A stretch of DNA of 64,000 nt, from NCBI GenBank assembly GCA_977017645.1, contig OZ360227.1, forward strand, positions 95,046,001 to 95,110,000, written 5' to 3'. Positions 6,001 to 46,427 of the stretch are shown piece after piece (within the stretch, counting starts at the first letter, position 1; every line of letters starts with the position of its first letter). This stretch comes from Torpedo marmorata. Its lineage: Eukaryota. Below the pieces are notes generated by a model, which was not told where the DNA came from, ran no database searches, and saw only the letters and a list, made by a program, of their open reading frames with translations. The position numbers and the translations under genes are program-made.

Positions 6001-9000
6001 CCATTCCCCACCGCCCCGTCCCCGAGAGTAACCCTCCCCACCGTCACGCCCCGGAGAGTAAAACTCCCCACAGCCCCGTCCCCGAGAGTAACACTCCCCA
6101 CCGCCACGCCCCGGAGAGTAACACTCCCCACCGCCCCGTCACTGAGAGTAACACTCTCCACCACCACGCCCCGGAGAGTAAAACTCCCCACCGCCCCGTC
6201 CCCGAGAGTAACACTTCCCACCGCTCCGTCCCCGAGAGTAACACTCCCAGGCACTACGCCCCGGAGAGTAACACTCCCCACCGCCACGCCCCGGAGAGTA
6301 ACATTCCTCACCGCCAGGTCCCCGAGAGTAACACTCCCCACCGCCATGCCCCGGAGAGTAACACTCCCCACCGCCACGCCCCGGAGAGTAACACTCCCCA
6401 CCGCCTGGTCCCCGAGAGTAATACTCCCCAACGCCACGCCCCGGAGAGTAACACTCCCCACCGCCACGCCCCGGAGAGTAACAGTCCCCTCCGCCACGCC
6501 CTGGAGAGTAACACTCACCACCGCCACGTCCCGGAGAGTAACACTCGCCACCGCCACGTCCCCGAGAGTAACACTCCCCACCGCCACGCCCCGGAGAGTA
6601 ACATGCACCACCGCCACGTCCCCGAGAGTAACACTCCCCACCGCCACGCCCCGGAGAGTAACAGTCCCCTCCGCCACGCCCTGGAGAGTAACACTCCCCA
6701 CCGCCACGTCCCGGAGAGTAACACTCTCCACCGCCTGGTCACCGAGAGTAACACTCCCCACCGCCACGCCCCGGAGAGTAACAATCCCCACCGCCACGCC
6801 CCGGAGAGTAACACTCCCCTCAGCCACGCCCCGGAGAGTAACACTCCCCACCGCCACGTCCCGGAGAGTAACACTCCCCACACTCCCCACCGCCACATCC
6901 CCGAGAGTAACAATCCCCACCGCCACGCGCCGGAGAGTAACACTGCCCACCGCCACGTCCCCGAGAGTATCACTCCCCACCGCCACGCCCCCGAGAGTAA
7001 CACTCCCCACCGCAACGCCCTGGAGAGAAACACTTCCCACCGCCACGCCCCGGAGAGTAACACTCCCCACCGCCCCGTAACCGAGAGTAACACTCCCCAC
7101 CGTCACGCCCAGGAGAGTAACACTCCCCACAGCCTCGTCTCCGAGAGTAACACTCCCCACCGCCCCGTCCCCGAGAGTAACACTCCCCATGCCACGCCCC
7201 GGAGAGTAACACTCCCCAACGCCCCGTCCCCGACAATAACACTCCCCACCGCTCCGTCCCCGAGAGTAACACTCCCCACCGCCACGCCCCAGAGAGTAAC
7301 AATCCCCACCGCCCCGTCCCCGAGAGTAACACTCCCCACCGCCACGCCCCGGAGAGTAACATGCACCACCGCCACGTCCCCGAGAGTAACACTCCCCACC
7401 GCCATGCCCCGGAGAGTAACAGTCCCCTCCGCCACGCCCTGGAGAGTAACACTCCCCACCGCCACGTCCCGGAGAGTAACACTCTCCACCGCCAGGTCAC
7501 CGAGAGTAACACTCCCCACCGCCACGCCCCGGAGAGTTACAATCCCCACCGCCACGCCCCGGAGAGTAACACTCCCCTCAGCCACGCCCTGGAGAGTAAC
7601 ACTCCCCACCGCCACGTCCCGGAGAGTAACACTCCCCACACTCCCCACCGCCACATCCCCGAGAGTAACAATCCCCACCGCCACGCGCCGGAGAGTAACA
7701 CTGCCCACCGCCACGTCCCCGAGAGTATCACTCCCCACCGCCACGCCCCTGAGAGTAACACTCCCCACCGCAACGCCCTGGAGAGAAACACTTCCCACCG
7801 TCACGCCCAGGAGAGTAACACTCCCCACAGCCTCGTCCCCGAGAGTAACACTCCCCACCGCCCCGTCCCCGAGAGTAACACTCCCCACGCCACGCCCCGT
7901 AGAGTAACACTCCCCACCGCCACGCCCCGGAGAGTAACACTCCCTAACGCCCCGTCCCCGACAATAACACTCCCCACCGCTCCGTCCCCGAGAGTAACAC
8001 TCCCCACCGCCACGCCCCAGAGAGTAACAATCCCCACCGCCCCGTCCCCGAGAGTAACACTCCCCACCGCCCCGTGCCCGAGAGTAACACTCCCCAACGC
8101 CCCGTCCCCGACAATAACACTCCCCACCGCTCCGTCCCCGAGAGTAACACTCCCCACCGCCACGCCCCAGAGAGTAACAATCCCCACCGCCCCATCCCCG
8201 AGAGTAACACTCCCCACCGCCTCGTGCCCGAGAGTAACACTCCCCAACGCCACAACCCGGAGAGTAACACTCCCCACCGCCACTCCCCGGAGTGTAACAC
8301 TCCCCACCTCCACTCCCCGGAGTGTAACACTCCCCACCGCCCCGTCCCCGAGAGTAACACTCCCCACCGTCACGCCCCGGAGAGTAAAAACTCCCCACAG
8401 ACCCGTCCCCGACAGTAACACTCCCCACCGCCCCGTCCCCGAGAGTAACACTCCCCACCGCCCCGTCCCCGAGAGTAACACTCCCCACCGTCACGCCCCG
8501 GAGAGTAACACTCCCCACCGCCCCGTCACTGAGAGTAACACTCCCCAGCACCACGCCCCGGAGAGTAAAACTCCACACCGCCCCGTCCCCGAGAGTAACA
8601 CTTCCAACCACTCCGTCCCCGAGAGTAACACTCCCAGGCACCACGCCCTGGAGAGTAACACACCCCACCGCCACGCCCCGGAGAGTAACACTCCCTACCG
8701 CCACGCCCCGGAAAGTAACACTCCCCACCGCCAGGTCCCCGAGAGTAATACTCCCCACCGCCATGCCCCGGAGAGTAACACTCCCCACCGCCACGCCCCG
8801 GAGAGTAACAGTCCCCTCCGCCATGCCCTGGAGAGTAACACTCCCCACCGCCACGTCCCGGAGAGTAACACTCTCCACCGCCACGTCCCCGAGAGTAACA
8901 CTCCCCACCGCCACGCCCCAGAGAGTAACACTCCCCACTGCCACGTCCCCGAGAGTAACACTCCCCACCGCCACGCCCAGGAGAGTAACACTCCCCTCCG

Positions 9001-12000
9001 CCACGCCCCGGAGAGTAACACTCCCCACCGCCACGTCCCCGAGAGTAACACTCCCCACCGTCACGCCAAGGAGAGAAACACTCCCCACCGCCACAGCCCG
9101 GAGAGTAACACTCCCCACCGCCCCGTCCCCGAGAGTAACACTCCCCACCGTCATGTCCCGGAGAGTAATACTCCCCACAGCCCCGTCCCCGAGAGTAACA
9201 CTCCCCACCGCCCTGTCCCCGAGAGTAACACTCCCCACCGCCACGCCCCGGAGAGTAACACTCCCCACCGCCACGCCCCGGAGAGTAACACTCCCCACCG
9301 CCCCGTCCCCGAAAGTAACACTCCCCACCGCTCCGTCCCCGAGAGTAACACTCCCCACCGCCACGCCCCTGAGAGTAACACTCCCCACCGCCCCGTCCCC
9401 GAGAGTAACACTCCCCACCGCCCCGTGCCCGAGAGTAACACTCCCCAACGCCACGCCCCGGAGAGTAACACTCCCCACCGCCACTCCCCGAAGTGTAACA
9501 CTCCCCAACGCCACTCCCCGGAGAGTAACACTCCCCACAGCCCCGTTCCCGAGAGTAACACTCACCACCGCCCTGTCCCCGGAGAGTAACACTCCCCACC
9601 GCCACGCCCCGGAGAGTAACTCTCCCCATCGCCACGCCCCTTAGAGTAACACACCACACCGCCACGCCCCGGAGAGTAACACTCCCCACCGCCACGCCCC
9701 TGAGAGTAACACTCCCCATTGCCCCGTCCCAGAGAGTAACATTCCCCACCGCCACGCCCCGGAGAGTAACACTCCCCATCTGCCCCGTCCCGGAGAGTAA
9801 CACTCCCCACCGCCACGCGTCTGAGAGTAACACTCCCCATTGCCACGCCATGGAGAGTAACACTCCCCACCGCTACTCTCCGGAGAGTAATACTCCCCAC
9901 CGCCACGCCCCGGAGAGTAACACTCCCCACCGCCACTCCCCGGAGAGTAACGCTCCCCACCGCCACGCTCCGGAGAGTAATGCTTCCCACTTCCACGCCC
10001 TGGAGAATAACGGTCCCCACCGCCACGCCCCGGGGAGTAACACTCCCCTCCGCCACGCCCCGGAGAGTAACACTCCCCTCCGCCACGCCCCGGAGAATAA
10101 CACTCCCCACCGCCACGCCCCGGAGAGTAACATTCCCCACCGCCAAGTCCCCGAGAGTAACACTCCCCACCGCCACGCCCCGGAGAGTAACACTCCCCAC
10201 CGCCACGTCCCCGAGAGTAACACTCCCCACCGCCACGCCCCGGAGAGTAACACTCCCCACCGCCACGCCCCGGAGAGTAACACTCCCCACCGCCAGGTCC
10301 CCGAGAGTAACACACCCCACCGCCACGCCCCGGAGAGTAACATTCCCCACCGCCACACCCCGGAGAGTAACATTCCCCACCGCCACGTCCCCGAGAGTAA
10401 CACTCCCCACCGCCACGCCCCGGAGAGTAAAACTCCCCACCGCCACACCCCGGAGAGTAACACTCCCCACCGCCCCGTCCCCGAAAGTAACACTCCCCAC
10501 CGCTCCGTCCCCGACAGTAACACTCCCCACTGCATCGCCCCAGAGAGTAACACTCCCCACCACCCCGTCCCCGAGAGTAACACTCCCCACCGCCCCGTGC
10601 CCGAGAGTAACACTCCACAACGCCACGCCCCGGAGTTTAACACTCCCCACCGCCACTCCCCGGAGTCTCACACTCCCCACCGCCCCGTCCCCGAGAGTAA
10701 CACTCCCCACCGTCACGCCCCAGAGAGTAACACTCCCCACAGCCGCGTCCCCGAGAGTAACACTCCACACCGCTCTGTCCCCGAGAGTAACACTCCCCAC
10801 CGCCACGCCATGGAAAGTAACACTCCCCACCGCCCCGTCACAGAGAGTAACACTCCCCACCGCCACGCCCCGGAGAGTAACACTCCCCACCGCCACGTCC
10901 CCAAGAGTAACACTCCCCAGCGCCACGCATCGTAGAGTAACACTCCCCAGCGCCACGCCCCGGAGAGTAACACTCCCCACTGTCATGCCCCGGAGAGTAA
11001 CACTCCCCACCGCCAGGTCCCCGAGAGTAACACTCCCCACCGCCACGCCCCGGAGAGTAACACTCCCCACCGCCACGTCCCGGAGAGTAACACTCCCCAC
11101 CGCCAGGTCCCCGAGAGTAACACTCCCCACCGCCACGCCCCGAGAGTAACACTCCCCACCGCCAGGTCCCCGAGAGTAACACTCCCCACCGCCACGCCCC
11201 GGAGAGTAACACTCCCCACCGCCACGCCCCGGAGAGTAACACTCCCCACCGCCATGCCCCAGAGAGTAACACTCCCCACCGCCACGTCTCCGAGAGTAAC
11301 ACTCCCCACCGCCACGCCCCGGAGAGTAACACTCCCCACAGCCACGCCCCGGAGAGTAACACTCCCCACCGCCACGCCCCGGAGTGTAACACTCCCCACC
11401 GCCACGCCCCGGAGAGTAACACTCCCCACCGCCACGCCCCGGAGAGTAACTCTCCCCACTGCCACGTTCCGGAGAGTAACACTCCCCACCGCCCCGTCCC
11501 CGGAGAGTAACACTCCCCACCGCCACGCCCCGGAGAGTAACACTCCCCACCGCCACGTCCCGGAGATTAACATTCCCCACCGCCACGCCCCGGAGAGTAA
11601 CACTCCCCACCGCCACGCCCCGGAGAGTAACACTCCCCACCGCCCCGTCCCCGGAGAGTAACACACCCCACCGCCACGCCCTGGAGAGTAACACTCCCCA
11701 CCGCCCCGTCCCCGGAGAGTAACACTCCCCACCGCCCCGTCCCCGTAGAGTAACACTCCCCACCGCCACGCCCCGGAGAGTAACACTCCCTACCCCACGC
11801 CACCGAGAGTAACACTCCCCACCGCCACGCCCCGGAGAGTAACACTCCCCACCGCCACGCCCCGGAGAGTAACACTCCCCTCCGCCACGTCCCGGAGAGT
11901 AGCAATCCCATCCGCCACGTCCCGGAGAGTAGCAATCCCCACCGCTACGGCCTGGAGAGTAACACTCCCCACCGCCACGCCCCGGAGAGTAACACTCCCT

Positions 12001-12194
12001 ACCCCACGCCACCGAGAGTAGCACTCCCCACCGCCACTCCCCGGAGAGTAACACTCCCCACCGCCACGCCCCGGAGAGTAACACTCCCCCCCGCCACGCC
12101 CTGTAGAGTAACACTCCCCACCGCCACGCCCCGGAGAGTAACACTCCCCACCGCCACGCCCCGGAGAGTAACACTCCCCACCGCCACGCCCCCG
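1..12194. repeat. 30-bp GC-rich tandem satellite/minisatellite, consensus GAGAGTAACACTCCCCACCGCCACGCCCCG, about 400 copies, open at the window's left edge
   Basis: The monomer is directly visible throughout, with 29/31-bp variants. The six-frame ORFs are 10-aa repeats (RRVTLPTATP, ESNTPHRHAP, GVAVGSVTLR, GGGECYSPGR, WGVLLSGAWR). Confidence 0.99.
3941..7189. repeat. Higher-order duplication of 1-3249 (period 3940 bp) within the satellite
   Basis: The same order of rare variant monomers recurs at an offset of 3940, with only about 10 substitutions seen by eye. ORFs 4..1674 and 3944..5614 are near-identical. Confidence 0.95.
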
Positions 12195-17629: not shown

Positions 17630-18840
17630 CCTCTGATTTCCCTGAATGATCACTGGATCTCACACCTCTGCTTTGCCTTCCTAAAGTCTACGATCAGCTT
17701 TTGGTGACAGAGTTAGAGCAGTGGTTTTCAAACTTTTTCTTTCCACTCACATACCACCTTAAGTAATCCCTGTGCCATAGTTGCTCAGTGATTACTTAAG
17801 GTGGTATGTGAGTGGAAAGAAAATGTTTGAAAACCACTGTTTTAATCATACCTAATTGATAAGTGCATGGTCTCATAACTCCAAAGGAAATGGGCCAATG
17901 ACAATTTTCCTCAATCAAAATATTTCAGTAACAATTGGGTCCAGAGCAGTGGTTCTCAACCTTTTTTCCCCACTCACATACCACCTTAAGTAATCCCTTA
18001 CTAATCACAGAGCACCTATGGCATAGGGATTACTTAAGGTGGTACGTGAGTGGAAAGAAAAAGTTTGAAAACCACTGAGTTAGAGGTTGTTGTTAGTACA
18101 CCATTTAGCCAAGTTTTCAATCTCCCTCCTGTATGTTGACTCATCGCCCCTTTTTATACAACCCACTACGGTGGTATCATCAGCAAATTTGCGTATGATG
18201 GTGTTGTCATACCGAGCCACACAGTCATGGGTGTAAAGCGAGTAGAGCAGGGGGCGAAGTACCCAACCCTGTGGCGCTCTGGTGCTGATGGAGATGGTGG
18301 AGGAGATGTTCTTGCCAATCCGCATTGATTAGGGTCTGGCAATGAGGAAATCCAGGATCCAATTGCACAGTGTGGTATTGAGGCCCAGGTCTTGGAGTTT
18401 GCTGATTAGTTTTGGGGGGATGATGGTGTTGAATGCCAAACTGGAGTCAATAAAGAGCATCCTGATGTATGCAACTTCACTGTCCAGGTGTTACAGGGTT
18501 TTGTGTGGAACCAGTGAGATGGCATCTGACGTAGTAGGCAAATTGGAGCGGATCCATGTTGCCAATCAGACAGGAACTGATGCGCTTCAACACTAACCTC
18601 TCAAAACACTTTATCACTGTGGATGTGAGTGCCACTGGTCGATAGTTATTTAGGCAGTTTACCACACTCTTTTTGGGCACCTAGTACAATTGAAGCCTGT
18701 TTGAAACAGGTGGGTACCATGCCCTGTCAGGGTGAGATGTTGAAGATATCCATGAATACATTGGCCAGTCATTCGGCACAGGTTTTCAGTATTCTGTCAG
18801 ATACTCTGTCTGGACCGGGTGCTTTCCTTGGATTCATTAG
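17630..18840 (-). mobile_element. Rex1/Babar-like LINE RT fragment, split by a hAT MITE
   Basis: [55 protein letters not shown]|...LIVDFRK. Confidence 0.85.
17719..18077. mobile_element. Composite hAT MITE made of two hairpin units
   Basis: Units at 17719-17839 and 17947-18077, each CAGTGGTT..AACCACTG. An 8-bp TSD AGTTAGAG flanks the pair (17711-17718, 18078-18085). Confidence 0.92.
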
Positions 18841-27956: not shown

Positions 27957-30900
27957 CACTGAACAATGAAGGCTTTGCTTCCTGAACACTTTTGGGTGTA
28001 TTTTATAGATTTTGGGCTACTGATCACGAAAATCACCTTAAAATTTTCTATCACGTACAGTTTTTTTCAGATATAATCTAACTTCCAAACTATATCCAGG
28101 TGATTGCCAACGAGCTTCAAGCATACAAAACCATGAAGTGCAATATGTCATTGAAAATTCATTTTCTGCATTCACACTTGGACTTCTTACCTGCTGATCT
28201 TGGTGAAAGGTTTCACCAGGACATTGCAACCATGAAAAAGCGGTATCAGGGTGTTATAAATTCAAACCAGCAACGACAGAAGACGCAATGCAAAAGGGGT
28301 AAAATTGAAATTTATATTTATTAAAGACAATTAAACATATAATTTCACAACAATTTTACCCCTTTTGCATTGCGTCTTCTGTCGTTGCTGGCTTGAATTT
28401 GTAACAAAATTGGGGGCTCGTCCTTGGGATTTGAATTAAAAAATCCATCTTGGTAATTGAAGGAATCCCAGTCTGGTTTAAGACATTCCTTTTGTAAAGC
28501 TAATTAAAAGCTAGTGTGTGTGTAACGAAAAACCAGCAACAATGGATGTAGGAAAATTTTTGGAATCACCTGAACCTGATACTTTAAAAAAGGCGAAAAA
28601 GGAACAGTTAGTGGCTATAGCAACAGAGTTGGGCATTGCTTCTGTAAAACCATTTATGAAAAAGGCAGAGATTGGGAGAAAAATTATCAAATACTATATA
28701 AAAGAAAAAAAGTTTGAGGCGAGCGTGTTGGAGCAGTTTCAAAAGGGTAAACCTTCTGAAAACATACAGTTGGAACTAAAGAAATTGGAATTGGAGGCAG
28801 CCAGGGAACAAAAGAAATTAGACACGGAATTGGAACAAAAGAAATTAGACACGGAATTGGAACAAAAGAGATACGAGAACGATGAGAAAAATAGGAGATA
28901 TGAGCTGGAAAAGATGAGGTTGGAAAATGAGAGGAGACAAGAAGAGCACCAAGATCAAATTTGTCATCCTGCTGAGGGGTTTTTGACTAGTAGAGAAGTT
29001 AGGTTGGTTCCTCCATTTGAGGAGGCAGAAATAGATAAGTACTTCCAGCATTTTGAGAAGGTGGCTGTGAAATTAAAATGGCCACAAGACCAATGGTCTC
29101 TTATGTTACAAAGTGTAATAAAAGGAAAAGCCCAGCAAGCTTATTCTATTCTTACCACGGAGCAAGCTGCTGATTATGAAATGGTGAAAAAGGCTATACT
29201 CCAGGCTTGAGTTAGTACCAGAGGCTTATAGACAGAAGTTCAGAAATTTAAAAAGATCAGCAACCCAATCTTACACAGAGTTTGCCTATGAAAAGGTTGT
29301 GTTTTGACCGGTGGTGCACATCTAAGGCGGTAAACAATGATTACAATCAATTGAGCGAATTGATAATAATCGAGGAGATTAAAAGGTGTGTTCCTGAGGA
29401 TATTACGGCACACTTAGATGAAAAGGAGGTGAAAACTTGGCAAAATTCAGCTAATTTAGCAGATGAATATGCTTTAACCCACAAGCCTAAGATGACGTCA
29501 GGCAGAATTTTCCAAAAGGTCACTAGATAATCCCAAGCAAGTGAAAAGTAAATTTGGAAGTGGTGTTAAGGAAAGGGATGAAGGAAAGTGGAAAAGGGAA
29601 AACCCTTCGGGTCCCATTTGTAGGAAGGCTGGTCATATGCTAGCAAGTTGTCCAGTGTTGAAAAAGAAGAGAGAAAAGGATGCAACACCTAATGCTTGTA
29701 TTCAGAGTGAGAAGAGGCATAACACTCAGGAAGGAGATAAATTTACTGACAAAGTTAGATGTATTTAAACCTTTTGTGACTGATGGTTTTGTTTCAGTTA
29801 AGGCAGGATCAAAACAAGTTCCAGTGAAAATCTTGTGAGATACTGGAGCTGCTCAGTCACTTGTGTTAGATAGTGTCTTGGAATTTTGTGAAGCTACTGA
29901 CACCGGTGACATAAATTTAATTAAAGGAATTGGGGGTGATGTTGAGTCCATTCCTTTGCACAAAATAGTGTTGGACTCAGACTTGGTGGAAGGACCTGTT
30001 ATAATAGGAGTGAGATCAGAGTTGCCAGTAGAAGGAGTCTCACTGTTGCTTGGCAATGACTTGGCCAAGGGTAAAGTAGTTCCTGCAGTGCAAATGACTA
30101 CTAAGCCAGTCATTGATAAGTCAGAGAAAGACTCTGATATTTATCTGGCATGTGCCATAACCAGGGCCATGTCTAAGTAAAATGTCACTGTAGAAAAGGC
30201 AGGGGAAAATAACTTGGTGAAAGAAAAAGTCAGTGATAATCAAGAACACCTGGAAAAGGTTGAGCAATCTCCTGTGTTACACCCATCCACTGATAAGACA
30301 CCTAAAGGCACAGATTTGTCACTATCCCGACAGGAGCTAATAGCAAGGCAAAAGGACGATCCTGATCTTGCTGAGGTGAGGGATAAGGTTCTCTCTGAAG
30401 AGGAGATTAAAAAGGTGCCAGTGGGTTATTATGGAAAAGATGGGGTGTTGATGAGAAAGTGGAGACCATGTGATGTTCCTGCCAATGAATAATGGGCAGT
30501 AGTGCAGCAGGTTGTGATCCCTAAAGTATATAGGGATACAATAATAACTTTGGCTCATAGTACACCCTTAGGTGGTCACCTTGGGGGTGAAGAAAACTAT
30601 AAGGAAGATAATGAAACAATTTTATTGGCCCAGTTTGAGAAGGGAGGTTGTAAGCTTTTGCCGGGCCTGTCACACTTGTCAGGTGGTGGGTAAACCTAAT
30701 CAGGGTCCCCCGGTGGCACCCTTGCAACCTATCCCTGCTTTCAGTGAGCCTTTTTCGAGAGTAATTGTGGACTCTGTTGGCCCATTGCCCAAAACCAAAG
30801 CGGGGAATGAGTATTTGTTAACAATTATGTGTGCAGCCACCAGATTTCCAGAGGCCATTCCTCTGAGAAACATTAAAGCAAAGTCAATTGTAAAGGCTAT

Positions 30901-33733: not shown

Positions 33734-34336
33734 TTATAGTTGGCATCACCAAATTTATCATGTTTATCATGTTTTTTGTTAACTAATTTATAACGCTTCA
33801 AAATAACTCCCAGCGACCATAGCTAATCTGCAGTACAAAGTTGTACCAATGAAGTTACTGGTGGTCTTTGTCTTCATTCCACTATCATTTACCATGTTAC
33901 AGGAATGCATAGAATGATTTTGCTAGATTTCCTTTAAAGCTGCCACAGCAGACAGAGTAATGGCTGCAGCAGCAAGCTTGAGACCATACACCTGAATTGG
34001 GTCAAAAGGGAAGACAAAGGAAGGGTTGCAGTGTGAGAGTGTTTCCATAAGGAGGAGGTCTTAGCTTCACATGAAATAGTAGTGGTGAGAAAGGTCGTTT
34101 CAGCAGCTAGCCATTCAGTTATTGTTGCTCTATGAATTGGAGGCAAATAATATGGTAGAAGCAATCCTGCATGCACCTGACCATATTACAGTGGGTCCTG
34201 TATTTCTGTCATAGGATTGAGAAAGGTAGCAGGAATAAAGTTATTCCATTTGTGTCCTTGTGTAAACAAATGACATATTGGTTTATAGTAAAAACACAAA
34301 AATGCAGGTCTTGCATCGTCCACAGGAGGTAAAGAT

Positions 34337-37300
34337 TTATTTTCTCCCAAAAATAGACTTTATTCATAATAAATAAATTAATTACAAAAGGAAAACCGTT
34401 CCAAGTCTCTTCCCACCCTTAGTTTTGTATCCATCATGGTACATTGTTACATTAATTTCTATTTGCACCAATGCAACCACTGTGGCACTGTGTCGTTACT
34501 TCCCCTTTATGGGTTTCCGCTCAGACACAGCCCCTCAATGCCCAGTAACGGAAGGATTCCAGACTGTGATCCTTCCCACCAATGCCCTCGCGTTGGCTGC
34601 GCCAAGCCTCAGCACGTACTCCTACAGACTGGAATGTTCCAGTCGGCAGCATTTCCGCACCGACATCTGGGTTCTGAAAAACCAACAGGTTTCGGGCAGA
34701 CCAAAGTATATCTTTCACAGAGTTGATGATCTTCCAGCAATTCTGGATGTCTGACTCTGTGTGCGTCCCCGGGTGCAGCACATAAACCAGAGTGTCCTCT
34801 GTCACGCTGCTGCTAGGGAAGAACTGTGACAGGGGACCCTTACATCCTTCTCCACACACTTTGTGATTCTGCAGAGGTGGGTGACTCTCTCCACTCCTTG
34901 GCAGTCAGTGTGAATTATGGGTGATGTTCTGACTGGGAGGGCTCCTCTCACCGCCAGCCAGGCCAAGTCCGGGTGCTTGTTTGTGAGCATTGGTGATGAG
35001 GCATTCTGCCAGGTGACCTGGACGGTCTGCTTTAGGAACCACCCCACAGTGTCCATAGAGTCCTCGTCTCTCAGTGTCTGCAGGATGTTCTGTGCTAACC
35101 ACTGCCTGATGGCTTTGTGGTCAAAGGCATTTGTCTGGAAAAACTTTTCCACGAAGGAAAGATGATGTGGCAAAGTCCAGCTGACTGGGACATTGGGGCC
35201 AGGCTCATCCTTCGCAACCCCTGGGACAGATAGAACCTCAGCACATAGCCGCACTTGATGCTTGTACTTTGATTCCATGCACAGCCTGATGCATCCACAC
35301 AGGTGGTCATCAGGATGAGGGCCATGCTGGGTACACTCTTGTCGCATTGTCTCGCGACTTGTATGTGGTGACCCTTTGGACCCTTGCCATTGTCACGGTC
35401 GCATATTTACCTTCGTCGGGAGCAGTGCCGGCTGCTGATGACGTAAGCGATGCGACGCGCGTCAGTAATAGCGCACATGTGCGGGTGTGTTAAGCGTCAG
35501 TATATGGGTGATGAATCTCAGATGCAGGAGGGTGAGAGTGATAGGATCACCTGTGTGGCAGTGAGCAAATGAGAAGGTCAGAGGAGTTAAGCTGGGTGGT
35601 GTTTGGGGAGTTGAAGAATGCAATGTTGTGTCTAGTGAATAATAAAAGAAAGTCGACTTCATGGTGTGCTGAAAGAAATGAGTGAGAGTATTCTTTATTT
35701 GTTTGTAAGCTGTGGTAAATCAGTGCTGTTATAAGTGGTGACCCCGTGAGTTCACAGTACCTTCTAATTTAAAATGGATAGTGATGAGGATAAACCCCTG
35801 ACAGGAGCAGTTGGAGAGGTCAAACTAAAGATTCCACCCTTTTTATTAATAATGCACTAGCATGGTTGATGATCCTCGAAGCACGATTCTCTGCCCTCAT
35901 GGTGACGAGTCAGGAGACGAAGTACGGTTTACTTGTGGAGCGTCTTCCAGAGAAGATTGTCTGTGAAGTGGAGGATGTCTTAGTGGATCCGGATGGTAAT
36001 CTCCCATACGACATGCTTAAGGCGGCTATTCTGTGGCGTACTCAGCCATCGAGGGAGACTCGTATTGCCCAATTACTAGCTGATGACAGCCTAAGTGATA
36101 GGCAACCGTCACAGACGTTGAGGAGGTGGCGCAGGCTAGCTGGAACAGACCCTGTCGAAGGCGATTTTTGGAAACACAGGTTCCTTCGATGTTTACCTCG
36201 TCATGTTCAAGAGCATTTGGTGAGTGTCTTTCGAATGTCCACCCTTGATCAGTTGGCGGATCATGCCGACCTCGTTATGTCCATGACCTCTGCATTGAAG
36301 ATAGAAGGATTGGCTTCTTCCCCTAGTCAACAGGAGCAAATGGAACAACTGCTTACTGCGCCTTGAAGTGCCAGCACCTTATCAGTCGAAGGTAGCGCCA
36401 GCACCTTATCAATCGAAGATAACTGAGTTGGAGCAGAAAATGGCAGCACTGACTATGCAGGTCCAGGCTTTGGGCATGCAATGGAATTCCTTCCGTCGAC
36501 CTAGTTGGAATCGTGGTGGTCGAGGACGTGGTAGAAGCGACGGACGGCGTATTTGTTGGAAGCACCGGAGATTTTGTGCTGCTGCCTGGTCCTGTCAGCC
36601 ACCTTGCGACTTCTACAAATGGCAGCCGGTAAACGACCAGACCCAGCAGTAGAGGCAACTGCTGCCCATGGGCACGTCGGCTGCCGTCTTTTCCTCAAAG
36701 ACCGTCTCTCGGGTGTTCAATTTCTTGTCGATTCCGGTGCAGAGATTTCAGTGGTCCCTCCAACCACGGAGGAACACAGATGCCCCAATGTGTCATGTAT
36801 TCTTTCAGCTGCGAATGATTCTCATATTCAAACATATGACCAGAGGTCACTCGCGTTGGAATTTGGTCTCAAGAAACCTTTTTGGTGGGTTTTCACGTTT
36901 GCAAATGTGGCAATTTCCATTTTGGGAGCAGATTTCTTGTCACATTTTTCTTTGTTGGTGGATTTGAAAAATTGCGTCGTGGACCGCAGCTCTTGTATGC
37001 GAGTGAGCTGCATTTGTCGTCCCTCCAATGTCGTTAGCCACCTGACGAGCCTTCAACCTGGCTCCTGCCCTTTCCGAGCCTTGCACAAGTGTTTCCCTTG
37101 CCTAGTGACCCCGTCGTATAGTCATACAGACGTTAAACATACAGTAACCCACCATATAGAGACTCGGGGTCCTCCGGTGGGCTACGTGTGGGCTCATAGA
37201 TTATCCCTGGACCATGCATCGCCTGTCTTGCACAATCGTACGAGGTCAGGCCGAGCTGTCAGCCCTCTACACCGTTACATAGCGGGACAGTTCCCATCAT

Positions 37301-40300
37301 TCGCCTCCTTGCATGGCTCGGAGGCTGAGGGGGGACTGTCGCGGTCGCGTACTTGTCTTCATCGGGAGCGGTGCCGGCCGCCGCTGATGATGTAAGCGAT
37401 GTAATAGCGCGCATGCGTAGGTGTGTTAAGCGTCAGTATATGGGTGATGAATCTCAGATGCAGGAGGAGGAGAGTGAGAGCGTCAGGATCACCTGTGTGG
37501 CAGTGAACCAATGAGAAAGTCAGAGGAGTTTAGCTGGGTGGTGTTTGGGGAGGTGAAGAATGCAATCTTGTGTCCAAAAGAAAGTCGACTTCATGGTGTG
37601 CTGAAAGAAACGAGTGAGTGTATTCTTTGTTTGTAAGCTGTGGTAAATCAGTGCCGTTACACCATCTTGGATCCCCATGTGAACTAGAATACTGCTCTGG
37701 TGAGTGCCAGGGCAGAGGTGCGGGTGATGGGCCACACCTACATCCAGCAATACCGAGAGCACCTCGCACCTGATGACCAGGTTCTTCCTTGTTATTGAGA
37801 GGGATTGCTGTACCCACAGACCCAATTTCTGGTGACCTTTGCAATCCCCTCCGATCAATTTTCGTTATATGCCTCGGCCCCTTCAAACCAGATCCCCAAC
37901 TCTTCAGGTCAGATCTGACTGTGAAGGGGATGGTGGACTGGTCAGACCAGTTACCGAAGAGCATTGCCTCGCTCTTCTTCCGGTTTACCCTGGTTCAGAC
38001 TCAAAATTGCTGCAGATGCTGAACAGTCTGCGGGCTGATCATGTGACCAAATGGAAGATGGTGACGTCATCCATATACAGGGAGGCCTTGCCCTTAGTGC
38101 CATCACTGCCTGGTAACGTCATTCCTCTTGCCCTTGTCCTTCCTGATGGATTCAGAAAAGGGCTCTTTGCAGCACACAATTAAGACTGGAGAGAGCAGGC
38201 AACTTTCCCTGACTCCAGATGATGGGAAAGCTATCTGTTTCCCACCCATTGATTTGGACTGTACTAGGGATGTCCATGTAGAGCAGTTTAATCTAATTTT
38301 GGATTCCCACCCCAAAACCCATTTTGGAGAGCAACATCCATCATGTACATGCGTTGAAAACCTTATCCTGGTCTAAGATGACCAGGCAGGTGTCCACCTC
38401 CCTGTCTTGAATGTAGGTGATGATATTTCTGAGCCATGTACAACTCAGCTGGTAAGCCATGTCTTCCGGGAGTTTTACTTGACTGAAATGAACGGATGGA
38501 GTCCTTCTGCTTCCCTGGGTAATTGGCTGGTCCATACTCTCCTGCTTGCTGTCATCTAAGAGCTCTATGATAGAGGACAGGAAGTTTTGGGTGGCCATTC
38601 TGTCAGTGTCCTTAGTGTGCAGTTTGGCATAAAATGATCATCCGTATGCCTGTCTGTGAGGATGTGACTGAGCCATCCTCTTCCTTAAGGCTCCCTCAGT
38701 GAACTTTTTGGAAGAAGCGTGAGCATGTCTCATTCTGCTCCACTGCGATCGGAAGATGATCTTGGAGTTCCTCTCTCACATCCACCCCTCTTGACTGCAG
38801 AAGGAGGAGGTGCAGCAGGTCAGTCTGGAGTTGGTTCAGTTCCCTGCAGGGTTGCTGAGGATAAAGAACCTCTTAATGTTCTCCTTGGTTGCTTTGCACC
38901 AGTTCACTGGGGAGTCAAAGAAGGGTTTCATGGTTCTCCAACCAGCATATTCCTTCTTTAGTTCCTCTACGTTATCTGGGTTCAGCAACATCACTTTCCC
39001 CTGCCCACCTCCTGGTCTTCCTGTAGGTGACAGGAGGTGCGAAAGAGGCAGTGGTCAGGGAAGAATGTGACGACAGTGGTTCTGACGTTGTTGGCCTTTG
39101 ACACGAAGAGGATGTCTATCCGAATTCGGATTGAGCTATCTGATCTCGACCAGTTGGGCTGTGGCTATGCTCCACCTGCAGGGTTGCTGAAGGTGTAACA
39201 CAGCTGTGCATCCTTTACTGTCAGGAGTCTGGAGCATCTGTCCATTCTGCTGTCAGCACTGCTGGATCATCCAGCTGCATCGATGATGCAGTTGAAGTCA
39301 CCGGCCTGGATGTTGCCAGCAACTGGGAGAGCTGCTGGAAGATGACCAGCCTCTCAGTCCGGACGGGTGAGGTGTACACATTGATCAGCTGGAGCAGTGT
39401 GTCACAGTGCTTCAGATCTACCACGAGGAAATGACCCCAACCACGTCGTTAACTTGGGTGATTACAAAGTTGTCTCGCTGCAGCAAGTTGCCCAGACTGG
39501 ATGCGCGAAAATCGTTCAACCCCCCCCCCCCCCCCCCGACCCTACAAACAACCCATGAGCCACCATTGCAACCACTTCTGATAGTTCCAGAGGTGTGGCA
39601 GCCCACAATCCTGCATGAAAATCACATCCGCCTTTACTTTGGCGATGTATTGCAAGACATTTACACATCATGCAGTGCATTTGATACTGCACATGTTGAG
39701 GGTTGCTATGTTAATCTCCGTTGTTGTTTATTGAAGTATCCAGTTCTCAGTCCATGCAGTCCATTGTCAATCAGCCTGAGCTCTCATGCCCACCGCTTTG
39801 GTAAACTGTAGCTCTGATTTCTGGCTCAGGAACGGGGGTTGATCTTCCTCTGGGAGTGGGGTCTCCTCGGGCGAAGCTGGTGGTGTCACTCAGGGTGGAT
39901 CTGGCTGTGCTCCTGCTTCTCTGTCTCCTGGCTGGCTTCTCCTTCTCCTGGGGGTGGGGGGATCGCCTCTGCGCTCTTCCTGTTCTCCTGGAGCTGGGGG
40001 GGGGGGGGGTGGGGTGGGCAATGGCTACTGCATTGCTCCTGGTCTCCCAGAGCTGAGGGGGGTTGCTGGTGCTGTACATCCCACAGTTGGGCTTACTAGT
40101 AACCCGTTGTCCTCCGTTCTTTCCCCTCTGCATTGGCGCTTCCTCTGCCTCCGTCCAATGCTCGTGCTGGCTTCATCCTCCCATGACGAGGTTGCTGGCT
40201 TTCATTTGTGCCTTGACCCTTTTCTTCCCACTGCTTGCAGTGTCAGTTTTCCGTTTCTTTGGTGAGTCTTTTTGGGTTTTCTTTTCTTCATCTGCCATCT

Positions 40301-41205
40301 TTCTTCTGCAGATCCTTGCTCCATCGACTCTGCCTCCTCAGGAGGGGCCTCTGGCCTTGTTGCTGAGGTTTGGGGTGGACGCGCATGGGGTCTCCTCACT
40401 TCCCCCAGTTTCTGTCTCTACTGGGGTCGCAGTTGAGGGGGTGTTGACCTCGCTGGAGGTGGTTATGTTGGCGGTTTACTCTCTATTACCTGTTTGTGGG
40501 TGGCTTCCTGTTTTGAGCAGCCTCTGTAGAGGTGGCCTGCTTCTCCACACAAGTTGCAGCACTTGCTCTCTTCACGGTCTGGTGGCCTTCCTGCTTGCAG
40601 ATCTTGCAGGTGACTGTGCTTGCATTGGGCTGCCACATGCCCAGATTTGTTGCAGTTGCTGCACACCCCGGGGTGTCCAGAGCAGACCAAGTATCCACGG
40701 TTCCCTCCAATGCTAAACACTTGGGGGGGGGGGGTGGGGCAGGGTAGATGATGGCCCCTTTTTGCTGTCCTCTCTCAGCTTCATCTTCACTTGCTATTTT
40801 CTGGTCCAGATTCCAAAGGTGTCTGTCGTCCACGCAGGTCCCTGTCCGCTACTGGCATTTGTGGGTTGAACATGTGTACCGTTATCACTCGTTACTTCAG
40901 TGTCGGAAGGGTGAAGAGTGGCTGTGCCTTAAATGGCAAGACTGAAGCCACATTCTTCTTCTCCTGGAAGTCCCGGAGCAACCTCTGCCATCCCGCCAGG
41001 GTTTTGAATGCCACATTAAAGTGACAGTCCTGAAGGCAGTAAATGTCCTTTGCCTCAAATTTGCAGCATTCCATCAAGACCTTTTGGACGAAGAGGTCCA
41101 AGGAAATTGGGGAACCTTCACTCAGGTCCTTCACTGTCGGTGTTCTGGGTTCTTTGCCTTCCCGAGGGGTTTGCTGCTGCGGCCATCCAGGTGAAACTTG
41201 CGTTT
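34337..41205 (-). mobile_element. Near full-length Tx1-clade non-LTR retrotransposon (CCHC ORF1, APE, RT), decayed
   Basis: Three zinc knuckles (CSNCNKSGHVAAQC, CKICKQEGH, CNLCGEAGHLYRGC), LINVY, LDQDKVFN, GVRESCLLSPVLIVCCKEPF, HxDLAWLAVRGALPVR. 14-bp TSD CAGGAGGTAAAGAT at 34323-34336 and 41206-41219. Confidence 0.9.
35391..37661 (+). mobile_element. Internally deleted gypsy-type LTR element (gag and protease only) nested in the Tx1
   Basis: LTRs at 35391-35733 and 37337-37661, tRNA-Trp-type PBS TGGTGACCCCG at 35736, PPT GAGGGGGGAC, FLVDSGAEISV protease, and a 4-bp TSD CCAT. Confidence 0.93.
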
Positions 41206-43352
41206 CAGGAGGTAAAGATGTATAGCCACAGTTTTGGGCCTGAGCCCTTTGTCAAGGTATGAGCAAAAAGCAGGCAGGCGTCTGAATAAAAAGACTGGGG
41301 GAGGAGCAAAGGGCAACAGGTCATAATTGGACGAGAACAGGAGAGGAAAGATGAGAATTGATCAGGGAGGGGTGTGGCTCTCTGAATTCGGAGCTGGAGG
41401 AAAGGGGGTCAGAAAGCAAGAGAGACAGATCTAGATGAAAGGATAGGGAAAAAGAGATGGGGGGGGGCTAACAGAAACCAGAGAAATCTATGTTAATGCC
41501 ATCTGGTTCGAGGATGCCCAAACGGAATATGAGGTGGTATTCCTTCAGTGTGTGTGGTCTACCTGGCAGTGCATGAGACCATGGACAGAGATGTCAGCAT
41601 GGGAATGGGGCGGGGAATTGAAATGGGTTGCCACTGGGAGGTGCTCGTTATTGTGGCGGACAGAGTGAAGAAGGTGCTCAGTGGAGCCATCTCCCAATTT
41701 GTGTCCAGTCTCTCTGATGCAGTGGAGACCACAACGGGAGCATCCATATAGTAGATGACCCCTGCAGATTCACAAGTGAAGTGTTGTTTCACTTGGAAGG
41801 ACTGTTTGGGGCTCTGAATGGTGGTGAGGGAGGAGGTGTGGGCATGTGTGGCATTTCCTGCATTCACCGGGGTAGGTGCCATGGGGGCAATTGGTGGGAA
41901 GGGAGGAGTGGACGAGGGAGCACAGAGGGAGCAGTACCTGGAGGGGAGGGAAAGATGTGTCTCGTGGTGGGATCATGTAGTGGGTGGCGAAAATGTATTT
42001 GGAGTCTGGTGGGGTGGTCATTGAGGACAAGGGAAATCCTGTTCTTGTTGCGCGTGGGGACAGAGGGAGCCAGGGCAGATGTGCGGGTAATAGAAGATAT
42101 CCAGGTGAGGGCCAAGTTGATGGTAGTAGTGGGAAAGCCACGTTTCTTTGAAGGAGGACAGGCACCAATACAGCATCCTCTGAATGCAGACTACTGATCC
42201 AGTGGATCGGCTGCTGGATTTTTCCACATTGCTGGTCTCCCCAAGTACAATAATTTAAAAATAGCACGCAAGTCTATTTGTTGTTGTTGTTCCCATCAGG
42301 AACATATTTTGTCATCGAGAAAATGCAAAAATGCTGGAGGCAATAGGCAGGTCTCGCAGCTTCCATAGGAGGTAAAGATATAACTAAAGTTTCGGGCCTG
42401 AGCCCTTCGTCATACTTTGAGCAAAAAGCAGGCAGGTGTTTGAATAAAAAGGCTGGGGAAGTAGGGAAGAAAGGGCAGGGAAAGAAGCACAGGCAAATGG
42501 TGATAATTGGACATGGATAGGAGGACAGAAGAGGAAAGGTGAGAATTTATCAGGGAGGGGTGTGGCTCTGTCAATGCAGAGCTGAAGGAAAGGAGACAGG
42601 GAAAGGAGGGTAGGGAGAATGAGAGAGAGGAAAGGATAAAGAGAGAGACGGAGTGGGAGATGGGTGCTGAAGGAAACCAGAGAATCAATGTTCATTCCAT
42701 CTGGTTGGAAGGTGCCTGAAGGGAATATAATATGTTGTTCCTCCAATTTGAAGGTGGTCTCAGTTTGGCAGTGTATGAGACCATGGACAGACATGGCATG
42801 GAATAGGACAGGGAATTGAAGTGGGTTGCCACTGGGAGATCTCCACTATTATGGCAGACAGAGCGAAGGTGCTCAATGAAGCAATCTCCCAGTCTCCCCG
42901 ATGTGGAGGAGACCACAACGGAAGCAGTAGATGACCCCTACAGATTCAAAAGTGAAGTGTTTATTCACTTGGAAGGACTGCTTGGGGCCCTGAATGGTGG
43001 TGAGGGAGGAGTTATGGGTGCAAGTGTAGCATTTCCTAGCATCACAGGTGTAGGTGCCAAGAGAGCAATTGGTGAGAAGGGAGGAGTGGACGAGGGAGTC
43101 ACAGAGGGGGTGGTCTGGGCACTCTCCAACCAGATGGCATTAACATTGATTTCTCTGGTTTCTGTTACCCTTCCCTGATCAATTCTCACCTTTCCTCTGT
43201 CCTATCCATGTCCAATTATTGCCATTTGCCTGTTGGACTGTACTCCTCCCCTGCCCTTTCTGCCGTCCTCCCCCAGAACTTTCATTCAGGTGCCTGCCTT
43301 CTTTTTGCTCCTACCTTGACAAAGGGCTCAGGCCTGAAAACATTGGTGATAT
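41206..43352 (-). mobile_element. Penelope-like element cluster: two tandem minus-strand 3' ends (41206-42170, 42315-43110) and an inverted terminal repeat (43112-43352, +)
   Basis: GIY-YIG region QSFQVKQHFTCESAGVIY, RLGDCFIEHLRSV, PVATHFNS, KLEEQHIIF..GT.QPDGMNID. The terminal repeat carries a TGAC(G)AAGGGCTCAGGCCCGAAAC hammerhead-like core. Confidence 0.85.
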
Positions 43353-43353
43353 A

Positions 43354-46300
43354 CCTCATGGTGGATCAAAAGTACCACGACACACTGCTCTGGCTGATCA
43401 ATGTATACACCTCACCCATGCGGAGTGAGAGGCTGACCATCTTCCAGCAGCTCTCACTGTTGCTGGCGATGGCCAGTCGTTCTGGCCGGCAACTTCAAGT
43501 GCATCAGTGATACAGCTGGACGATTTGGTGGTGCCGACAGCAGACTGGATGACTTCTCTTGACTTCTGATGGAGATGGTAAAGGATGCACAGCTATGTGA
43601 AACCTTCAGCGACCCTGCAGGTGGAGCACAGCCGCAGCCCACCTAGTCGAGATCAGACAGCTCGATCGGTCTCTATTAGACTTCCTTTACGTGTTAAAGA
43701 CCGTCAGAACCACTGACGTCACGCCAGTGTTCTTCTCTGACTGCAGCCTCCTTCGTGCCTCCTATAACCTACAGGAGAACCAATATGTGGGCCGGGGAAT
43801 GTAGAAGTTGAACATGAAGTTGCTGAGCCCAGAGAATGTAGAGGAATGAAAGTATGTTGATTGGAGAACAGTGAAACCCTTCTTTCATTCCCCATTGAAC
43901 TGGTGGGAAGCGACGAAGGAGAACATCGAGAGGTTCTTTATCCTCAAATGTGTTCAGAGAGCAAGACTGAGGCAGAGGAAACTGAGCCAACTCCAGTCTA
44001 ACCTTGCAGTAACTCCTCCTCCTACAGTCGAGAAGGGTCATTGTGAGAGGAATTCCGAGAGGTGAAGAGTCAGCAAGCTGCGCTATTCATCTGAGTCCTC
44101 CAAGATCATCTTCTGATCCAGAGTCCGCACAGTTCAGCAGGATCAAACATGCTCAAGTTTTTTCCAAAAGGTTCACAGTGAATCCACAGCCTTAAGGAAG
44201 TGAATGACTCAGTAACGAGCTCGCAGACAGGCATACAGAGGATCAGCAAATCCTTGCGTGCCGAACTGTACAACACTAAGGTTACGGACAGAATGGCCTC
44301 CCAGAACGTCCTGTCCTCTATCACGGAGGTCTTGGGCAACAGCAAGCTGGACAGTCTGGACCAGCCACTGTCCCTGGGTGAGCTGAAGGACTCCATCCAT
44401 TCCTTTCGGTTGAGTAAAACTCCCTGAAGCAATGGCTTACTGGCTGAGTTGTACATGGCTCAGTGGGCCTGGACCTGCTGGAAGTATACAACCCTATGCT
44501 CCTGGCAAGCAGCATGTCAGACTCCAGGAGGAAGGGTATCAAACTGAAGGAGGAGTAGGAGGTTATCAGGATTTGGAGACAGCCTCGCGCTGCTCAGAGA
44601 TACTATTGTCTACGTGCAGGACGGGGGTGGAGACCTGCTTGGTCAGCTCAAACCAGGAGAAGGCTTTCGATTGGATATTGCTCTCCAAAATGGGCTTTGG
44701 GGAGGGAATCCAAAATTGGATTCAACTGCTCTACATGGACAGTGCAGTCCGAATCAATGGGTGGGAAACCGATAGCTTCCCCATCAAGTCTGGAGTCAGG
44801 CAAAGTTGCTCGGTTTCTTCAGTCTTGTTTGTGTGCTGCATAGAGCCCTTTGCTGAATCCATCAGGAAGGACAAGGACATAAGACGTGTAACATTCCCAG
44901 GCAGTGGAGGCACTCTGGTCAAAGCCTCCCTGTATGTAGACGAAGTCGCCGTATTCTGTTTAGACTCACGATTGGTCCGCAGACTGATCAGCATCTGCGG
45001 CCATTTTGAGTCTGCATCGGATGCCTGGGTAAACTGGAAGAAGAGAGAGGCAATGCTCTTTGTTAACTGTTCTGACCGGTCCACCGTTCCCTTCACGGTC
45101 AGATCTGACTACCTGATGGTGTTGGTGATCTGGTTTGGAGGGGCCAAGGCAAGCAAAAAAAATTGGTTAGAGCAGATTGCAATGGTCCACCAGAAATTGG
45201 GTCTGTGGGCATAACTCTCCCTTTCAATAACAGGGAAGAACCTGGTCATTAGGTGCAAGTTGCTCTCGGTACTTCCATACGTGGCACAGGTGTGGCCCAT
45301 CCCCTGCACCTCTGCCCTCTGCCCTGGCACTCACCAGAGCAGTATTCTGGTTCATATGGGAATCCAAGATGGCAAGGGTTCGAAGGGTCGCCATATACAT
45401 CGCCAGACAAGGCGACAAGGGTGTACCCAGTGTTGCCCTCATCCTGAAGACCCCCTCAGTGTGTGGCTGCATCAGGCTGTGCATGGAATCAAAGTACGAG
45501 GGCACCAAGTGCCTCTGTGCTGAGGTTCTATCTGTCCCAGGTGTTGCGAAGGATGAGCCTGGTCCCTTTGCCACGCAATGTTCTAGTCAGCTAGACTTTG
45601 CCACACCATCTATCCTTAGTGGAAAAGTTTTTCCAGACAAATCCCTTTGACCACAACGCCATCAGGCAGCAGTTAGCACGGAACATCCTGCAGACACTGA
45701 GAGATGAGGACTCTATGGACACGGTGGGGTGGTTCCTGAAGCAGACCGTCCAGGTCGTTTGGTGGAATGGCTCATCACAAGTGCTCACAAACAAGCACCA
45801 GGACTTGGCCTGGCTGGCATTGAGAGGAGCCCTCCCAGTCAGAACATCACCCACAATGCACACTGACTGCGAAATGACTGCCGTGGAGTGGACACAGTCG
45901 CCCACCTCTTTGCAGAATGCAGATTTGCGAAGAGTGTGTGGAGAAGAATGCAAGGGTCCTTGTCACGTTTCTTTCCTAGCAACTGCGTGACAGAGGACTC
46001 TGCTTTACGGGCTGTTCCTGAGGATGTATACAGAGTCAGACATCTGGAACTGCAGGCAGACCATCAACTTGGTGAAAGACACACTTTGGTCTGCCCGAAA
46101 CCTATTTTTCTTTCCGCACACTGAGATGTTGGTGCAGGACTGCTGCTGACTGGCATATTCCAGTCTGCTGGAGAATGTGCTGAGGGACAGAGGCTTTACG
46201 CAGCCAACATGAGGGCGCTGTGGGGTAAGACCACAATCTAGAGTCCATCCATTACTGGGTATTGAGGGGATGCCCGTCAAATAACCGAGGGGAGTAATGA

Positions 46301-46427
46301 CAAGGTACCACAGTGGTGGAAATGCTGCTGAATAGAACTGAATGTAAAAATGTACAGTGATGAAAATGTATGGATACGAAACCAAGGGTGCAAAGAGACT
46401 TTAAATGATTTTCCGTTTGTAAATATA
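43354..46427 (+). mobile_element. Second Tx1 copy of the same family, 5'-truncated (APE, RT, C-terminus)
   Basis: LINVYTSP, NQEKAFD, GVRQSCSVSSVLF..IEPF, LYVDEV, HQDLAWLALRGALPVR. Collinear with 34337-39430 on the opposite strand. Confidence 0.9.

Follow-up and report, generated by a model that had tools for sequence, protein, structure and literature searches.

A U2-headed Tx1 retrotransposon family with a preference for one site in a Penelope-like repeat

In this study we show that a family of Tx1 retrotransposons has inserted repeatedly, by independent events, into one site of a Penelope-like terminal repeat, next to a hammerhead-like motif and in one orientation. The preference is strong, yet most copies lie elsewhere, and the family is target-preferring, not target-specific. 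In the reading that we favour, to which we give a probability of about 60%, the family is a descendant of Keno whose APE has lost strict U2 specificity and come to favour a stretch of ~15 nt 3' of the Penelope hammerhead-like motif. The host genome comprises 6.2 Gb and, to judge from its repeats, presumably belongs to a cartilaginous fish.

Results

Two Tx1 copies and their Penelope flanks

The window, i.e. the whole stretch of 64,000 nt that was analysed, holds two copies of the family. The features around them are as follows (window coordinates, strand, basis in brackets):

34290..34336, minus: downstream half of terminal repeat 1, a Penelope repeat of subfamily A; the 3' TSD copy is part of it (sequence reading, alignment)
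34323..34336, minus: 3' copy of the 14-bp TSD (exact 14-mer)
34337..41205, minus: Tx1 copy 1, with ORF1 carrying CCHC knuckles, a decayed APE-RT-zf ORF2 and a poly(A) remnant (comparison with the family consensus)
35391..37661, plus: remnant of an LTR retroelement inside Tx1 copy 1 (82% identity between its LTRs, 4-bp TSD, DUF7041 ORF)
41206..41219, minus: 5' copy of the 14-bp TSD (exact 14-mer)
41220..41260, minus: hammerhead-like motif of Penelope repeat 1, ending 11 nt ahead of the TSD (sequence reading)
41220..41960, minus: Penelope copy 1, upstream half, comprising a degenerate GIY-YIG end and the 3' UTR (GIY-YIG remnant)
42320..43108, minus: uninterrupted Penelope copy representing the empty target site; it carries a GIY-YIG remnant and is the inverted partner of repeat 2 (alignment)
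43113..43353, plus: upstream half of Penelope repeat 2, interrupted 12 nt past its hammerhead-like motif (~43312-43349) (sequence, folding)
43354..46425, plus: Tx1 copy 2, 5' truncated inside the APE, with RT (Pfam RVT_1) (Pfam, family consensus)

Joined together, the flanks of copy 1 make up one Penelope terminal repeat, the uninterrupted form of which lies at 42320-43108. The motif at copy 1 reads ...GGCCCAAAAC. We number the base following the GAAAC of the motif as 0, so that the TSD of copy 1 spans +11 to +24. A preliminary description of the window had placed copy 1 within the repeat, flanked by a 14-bp TSD and about 12 nt past the motif; the TSD is borne out by the exact 14-mers at 34323-34336 and 41206-41219, and the location stands, with the distance corrected to 11 nt between the last base of the motif and the TSD. 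Also as described there, copy 2 sits near the same position of another copy of the repeat: it starts at 43354, 12 nt past the motif and directly after +11, in the same relative orientation as copy 1. Its 3' junction had been reported as missing, and indeed copy 2 ends 37 nt before the family 3' end, these last 37 nt being lost together with the 3' flank; neither poly(A) nor a downstream Penelope half was found in the 4 kb beyond its end.

Copy 1 has a slight 5' truncation and lacks the U2 head described below. Identity is 72-79% between the two copies and 79-86% between them and the family consensus, on which they start at 234 (copy 1) and 2063 (copy 2), and their RT-region deletions differ as well (~280 nt at ~3205-3487 in copy 1; ~125 nt at ~3349-3473 in copy 2). 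Given these different truncations and deletions and their mutual identity, the copies are not one duplicated unit. This upholds the earlier view of two independent events, and an old inverted duplication of a Penelope-Tx1 unit is not the source, since truncations and junctions differ in the window and among dozens of other copies.

The LTR element at 35391-37661, which also holds a protease-like frame, is a later insertion into copy 1 and has no part in targeting. Elsewhere, window positions 1-12192 are taken up by a 30-bp minisatellite of ~405 copies (85% matches). Long frames free of stop codons run through it on both strands and seem to be a consequence of the repeat unit. Inverted repeat arrangements occur at 42320-43353 (the back-to-back Penelope pair), 28252-28406 and 17713-18077, and target 12-mers frequently form close inverted pairs genome-wide.

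Association with the Penelope site across the genome

Tx1 3' ends were marked by an exact 19-mer (1,414 genome-wide) and the target by an exact 12-mer (38,286 occurrences). The target 12-mer followed within 30 nt on 31 of the 1,414 ends, where 0.126 were expected, an excess of ~250-fold (Poisson p ~1e-62). When the anchor was placed another 30 nt downstream and the search distance extended to 90 nt, 31 of 33 matches were to subfamily A with the junction at the hammerhead-adjacent site; the opposite orientation gave a single match, distant from the site. Eleven loci are common to the two sets, and with decay allowed for we estimate ~87 on-target ends or ~6%, likely an underestimate.

An unselected sample of 91 ends (all 82 anchors of contig C1 and the first nine of C2) contained 11 that were clearly on target, one more with Penelope on its 5' side and one ambiguous. 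Subfamily B was the target of none of the 91, the only sample in which it was assessed because neither the 12-mer nor the distant anchor can detect it. Locus L102 was dropped as ambiguous, with a match of only 8 nt and no flanking Penelope halves. Contig C1 is richer in on-target copies by exact matches (5/82 versus 26/1,332 elsewhere, p 0.03). Among the best 29 non-self matches to copy 1, two are on target. Full-length copies carry the upstream Penelope half at their 5' junction in 11 of 39 cases (read by eye), eight of these with the downstream half as well (one degenerate), a greater share than the 11/91 of the unselected sample (p 0.04).

The passages of PMC4494074 used here call a family target-specific when more than 20% of its flanks are the target. 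Both the unselected sample and the genome-wide estimate fall short of this share, and only the full-length copies exceed it. The preliminary description had spoken of a target-specific family that parasitises a Penelope repeat, and had proposed a search for the target in the flanks of all genomic copies. What holds is the recurrent use of one site in one orientation and the strong enrichment of the target; "target-specific" has to be given up, as about 80 of the 91 unselected 3' ends lie elsewhere, genome-wide only ~6% are on target and most flanks are unrelated.

Junctions and independence of the insertions

The first non-A base lies at -2 to +14 in 56 of 57 on-target or candidate loci, a set partly selected by pattern. 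The 3' junctions peak at 0 (12 loci) and form a series at +6 to +12 within the TATATA run. On-target junctions are confined to ~15 nt after GAAAC, in one orientation and in one Penelope subfamily of matching age. In 23 two-sided insertions, with 3' positions assigned by hand, the overlap ranges from a 7-nt deletion (-7) to a 15-nt duplication (+15), and 12 show no duplication. The 3' arm of stem I is kept in only 11 of the 23, and ribozyme capture was rejected as a requirement for insertion. Exact poly(A)-target junctions found without selection for Tx1 all belonged to the Tx1 family (5/5). Locus L180 has, ~710 nt ahead of its Tx1 anchor, a sequence that is not Tx1 and ends in poly(A) right next to position 0 of a Penelope-A site; it is possibly a retrocopy mobilised in trans.

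Of 135 candidate loci, 71 were long enough for a family tree (72 rows). The tree is star-like and on-target copies are scattered over it, with 19 label changes versus 23.3 in shuffled data; a dedicated on-target subfamily was therefore rejected. Clustering is mild: one 16-row subclade is mostly off-target, and 12 of 500 shuffles were as low as observed.

Off-target junctions are weakly enriched for ^AT/^GT (49/75, p 0.001). Beyond ^RT and an excess of T at +5, no U2-like or Penelope-like motif was found at these sites, nor did they share a second repeat target besides Tx1 itself. No snRNA or tRNA match reached the Rfam gathering score in the 79 off-target loci; three weak 5S-like matches lie at least 200 nt from the junction. 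Two loci (L356:95-790 and L358:100-1240) each have two tandem Tx1 copies at one site outside Penelope, and the TSD recurs both between the copies and behind the second. In several other cases a 3' end passes straight into another Tx1, once (L349) into a complete U2 head, a pattern expected of end-to-end template jumps. At L355 (~1500) the 5' junction is a hybrid of Penelope and U2 head joined at a short shared motif, and at L245 (~250) partial tandem repeats of the hammerhead region precede a full-length Tx1.

The family and its U2 head

The full-length element measures ~5.4 kb and shows the features of the Tx1 clade: ORF1 with CCHC knuckles, ORF2 with APE, RT and zinc finger, and a poly(A) tail. 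The consensus contains three CCHC motifs, GDFN/SDH and YMDD, and the nearest proteins carry Exo_endo_phos, RVT_1 and zf-RVT domains. Owing to decay, the GIY-YIG and ORF1 fragments of the window gave no Pfam match.

Full-length copies start with nt 1 to ~36 of U2 snRNA. Since this head is partial, its best Rfam match stays under the gathering score (E 0.0012). Of 45 heads examined, 13 keep the first five U2 bases, and in six of these 13 a G precedes U2 +1 (p 0.04), a weak hint of the cap signature of an RNA starting at U2 +1. The intact heads of off-target copies likewise begin at U2 +1, with no Penelope remnants. One copy runs directly into U2 from nt 38, the canonical Keno site; this is the only poly(A)-U2 junction found genome-wide, and U2 was the target of none of the 91 unselected 3' ends.

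A metagenome search with an alignment of near relatives returned 80 loci, the best two of which (L268 and L269) begin with a U2 5' segment. In the metagenome contig L269, a complete Keno-type element at 74-5834 is flanked on either side by U2, and the contig ends in a further U2 5' start, which suggests a U2 array. The U2 3' junction of this element is the same as that of the single U2-inserted copy of our family. In a quick RT tree of 132 rows (built from a search with near relatives as query, without named Keno, Tx1L or Kibi references or an outgroup, and with SH-aLRT as the only support), the family joins amphibian proteins (SH-aLRT 99) inside a 21-row clade with L268 and L269 (96), and is the nearest row to L269 after L268. 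None of 72 proteins was a named Keno or Tx1L reference. The passages of PMC4640811 cited here assign Keno and Utopia one common U2 site. Because of its U2 head, the copy at the Keno site and the grouping of its RT with U2-inserted elements, the family is likely a Keno descendant with relaxed and shifted targeting. It acts as a Keno derivative but is not Keno proper, as it does not insert specifically into U2.

The Penelope target

Remnants of GIY-YIG lie upstream of the terminal repeats in the window and of subfamily-A repeats, and a subfamily-B copy encodes RVT_1 (E 6e-9) together with GIY-YIG (E 9e-4, under the gathering score); we therefore regard the target repeats as Penelope-like. Stems I and II of a minimal hammerhead can be formed by the motif, but shuffled sequences fold just as well (z 0.02), and an Rfam search of the motif region in the window gave no match. 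We call it hammerhead-like by its topology and treat it as a putative ribozyme. With the minimal hammerheads of Penelope/Poseidon pLTRs, as presented in parts of PMC4209133, it shares the RT/GIY-YIG region upstream, stems I and II, the extra base after A9 and the palindromic 15.2-16.2 step; it differs in core position 3, which, read from the subfamily consensus, is apparently U here and not C.

At least two subfamilies of the repeat exist, with a median identity to their consensus of 87% (A) and 95% (B). Tx1 copies are 87% identical to their own consensus, like subfamily A, and of the Penelope matches nested inside Tx1 copies four are A-type and 12 are B. It thus appears that Tx1 and subfamily A were active together and that B came mostly later, which would explain why B was spared although its site looks alike.

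Discussion

If the family is indeed a Keno descendant with an altered APE, its master copies would be transcribed from U2 +1, and the element's own APE would nick the bottom strand at purine-T steps, namely at position 0 and, within the TATATA run, at +7 to +11. If the second strand was then cut loosely in the course of ordinary target-primed reverse transcription, TSDs ranging from -7 to +15 nt might result. The excess at the site, the orientation, the ^AT/^GT bias, the scatter of on-target copies, the matching ages of Tx1 and Penelope A and the precedent of Tx1-Mar all argue for this model. So does position +11, since nowhere else on the repeat's sense strand is the resemblance to the U2 site closer (10/17, top 0.5% of random positions). 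However, the position-0 cluster is unlike U2 (7/17), off-target sites have no longer motif, and the two-sided insertions without duplication or with deletion (12/23) also fit breaks made by another enzyme. Besides, a U2 likeness in the top 0.5% cannot alone yield an excess of several hundred-fold, so that a further determinant would be needed. RNA-guided priming through a 7-nt match between the element 3' end and the target was rejected, with no enrichment at 13 TSD-defined off-target sites (13 of 89 resolved), and so was a long-range likeness of U2 and Penelope including a hairpin, which is not special (16/40, 3% of random positions).

It is conceivable, if rather unlikely, that the host element, instead of the LINE nuclease, directs targeting, so that a former U2 parasite would now depend on Penelope machinery, be it on Penelope-endonuclease nicks or on tethering. 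As to nicks, we consider it unlikely that the Penelope GIY-YIG endonuclease cuts the AT-rich stretch of its own repeat and a co-expressed Tx1 particle primes there. By analogy, such cutting would be in keeping with the Poseidon EN, which according to parts of PMC11167929 cuts AT-rich (ATT) DNA and has been proposed to do so in its own pLTR too; the spread junctions, the absent or variable TSDs and the off-target sites without a matching motif would suit it as well. That only the subfamily co-active with Tx1 was struck might also be expected, but that B escaped is explained by its age (median identity 95%, with 12 matches to B nested in Tx1). Further, the position-0 cluster is not AT-rich, off-target sites were re-struck in tandem with TSDs and no Penelope needed, and the poly(A) junctions were those of the Tx1 family in 5/5 cases, the one non-Tx1 poly(A) at L180 being a separate find.

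Somewhat less probable still is that the particle is tethered to the part of the Penelope repeat where transcription starts or the ribozyme is processed, much as U2 attracted its ancestor, the gain being a promoter and possibly a ribozyme-cut 5' end. Insertion strictly in sense and directly 3' of the predicted cleavage point, the loose choice of position and the greater share of on-target insertions among full-length copies (11/39 vs 11/91, p 0.04) would all be accommodated; this reading is weakened by the retention of the stem I 3' arm in fewer than half of the insertions (11/23), by off-target heads that start at U2 +1 free of Penelope remnants, and by the lack of any snRNA match at the Rfam gathering score in the 79 off-target loci. 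Improbable in our view are chimeras formed when the Penelope RT jumps to Tx1 RNA at the ribozyme junction: junctions do cluster near the predicted cleavage site (+3) and zero-overlap junctions are common, but the main 3' junction is at 0 and not at +3 (12 vs 1), duplications of 11-15 nt exist, full-length 5.4-kb copies sit between both Penelope halves, and the captured poly(A) sequence is almost exclusively of the Tx1 family. Chance, or the hitch-hiking or duplication of a single Penelope-Tx1 unit, could account for the mild clustering on the tree and the enrichment on contig C1, but can practically be dismissed, as junctions and truncation points differ between copies, the tree is star-like and the Poisson p is minute.

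A shifted Keno-type specificity has a close counterpart. The crocodilian Tx1-Mar families are, in the passages of PMC4494074 considered here, related to Keno, some of them U1/U2-headed, and prefer Mariner-N4, whereas others prefer LTR or Harbinger elements. They share with our family the snRNA 5' head, a partial preference for an abundant transposon in fixed orientation and a similar identity to consensus (85-87%; 87% here). Tandem insertions, reported there for the partner SINEU-3, are seen here for Tx1 itself. The target differs, being a Penelope-like repeat by its hammerhead-like motif, and the preference is weaker here (6-12% of all copies). By this analogy, the family works like Tx1-Mar with a new target class. 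With Keno itself (parts of PMC4494074 and PMC4640811) the family has in common the APE-RT ORF2, the U2 5' sequence at the head and the RT clade; unlike in Keno, U2 is almost never the target and the U2 head travels along to non-U2 sites. Tx1L in the Xenopus Tx1D DNA transposon is likewise a Tx1-type LINE nested in another transposon, but is reported in the same passages of PMC4494074 as carrier-specific, while our family uses a loose window and has mostly unrelated flanks.

The preliminary description had taken the Penelope target to be undescribed. A search of papers, as distinct from Repbase and Dfam entries, found none on Tx1 targeting Penelope, in agreement with that view; the Tx1-Mar precedent for another transposon had been missed, as had the U2 head and the Keno ancestry.

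In conclusion, the family is old and decayed, its preference is partial and the general principle has been published before. Nevertheless, it broadens the Tx1-Mar pattern of crocodilians by a retroelement target and, presumably, by a new host class. U2, the likely ancestral target, persists in the head of the element and in a single insertion, and the bulk of the targeted copies is found at Penelope; this would be a target switch caught in progress. As such, the family offers a three-way comparison between U2, Penelope and off-target sites of how APE endonucleases gain, relax and shift their specificity.
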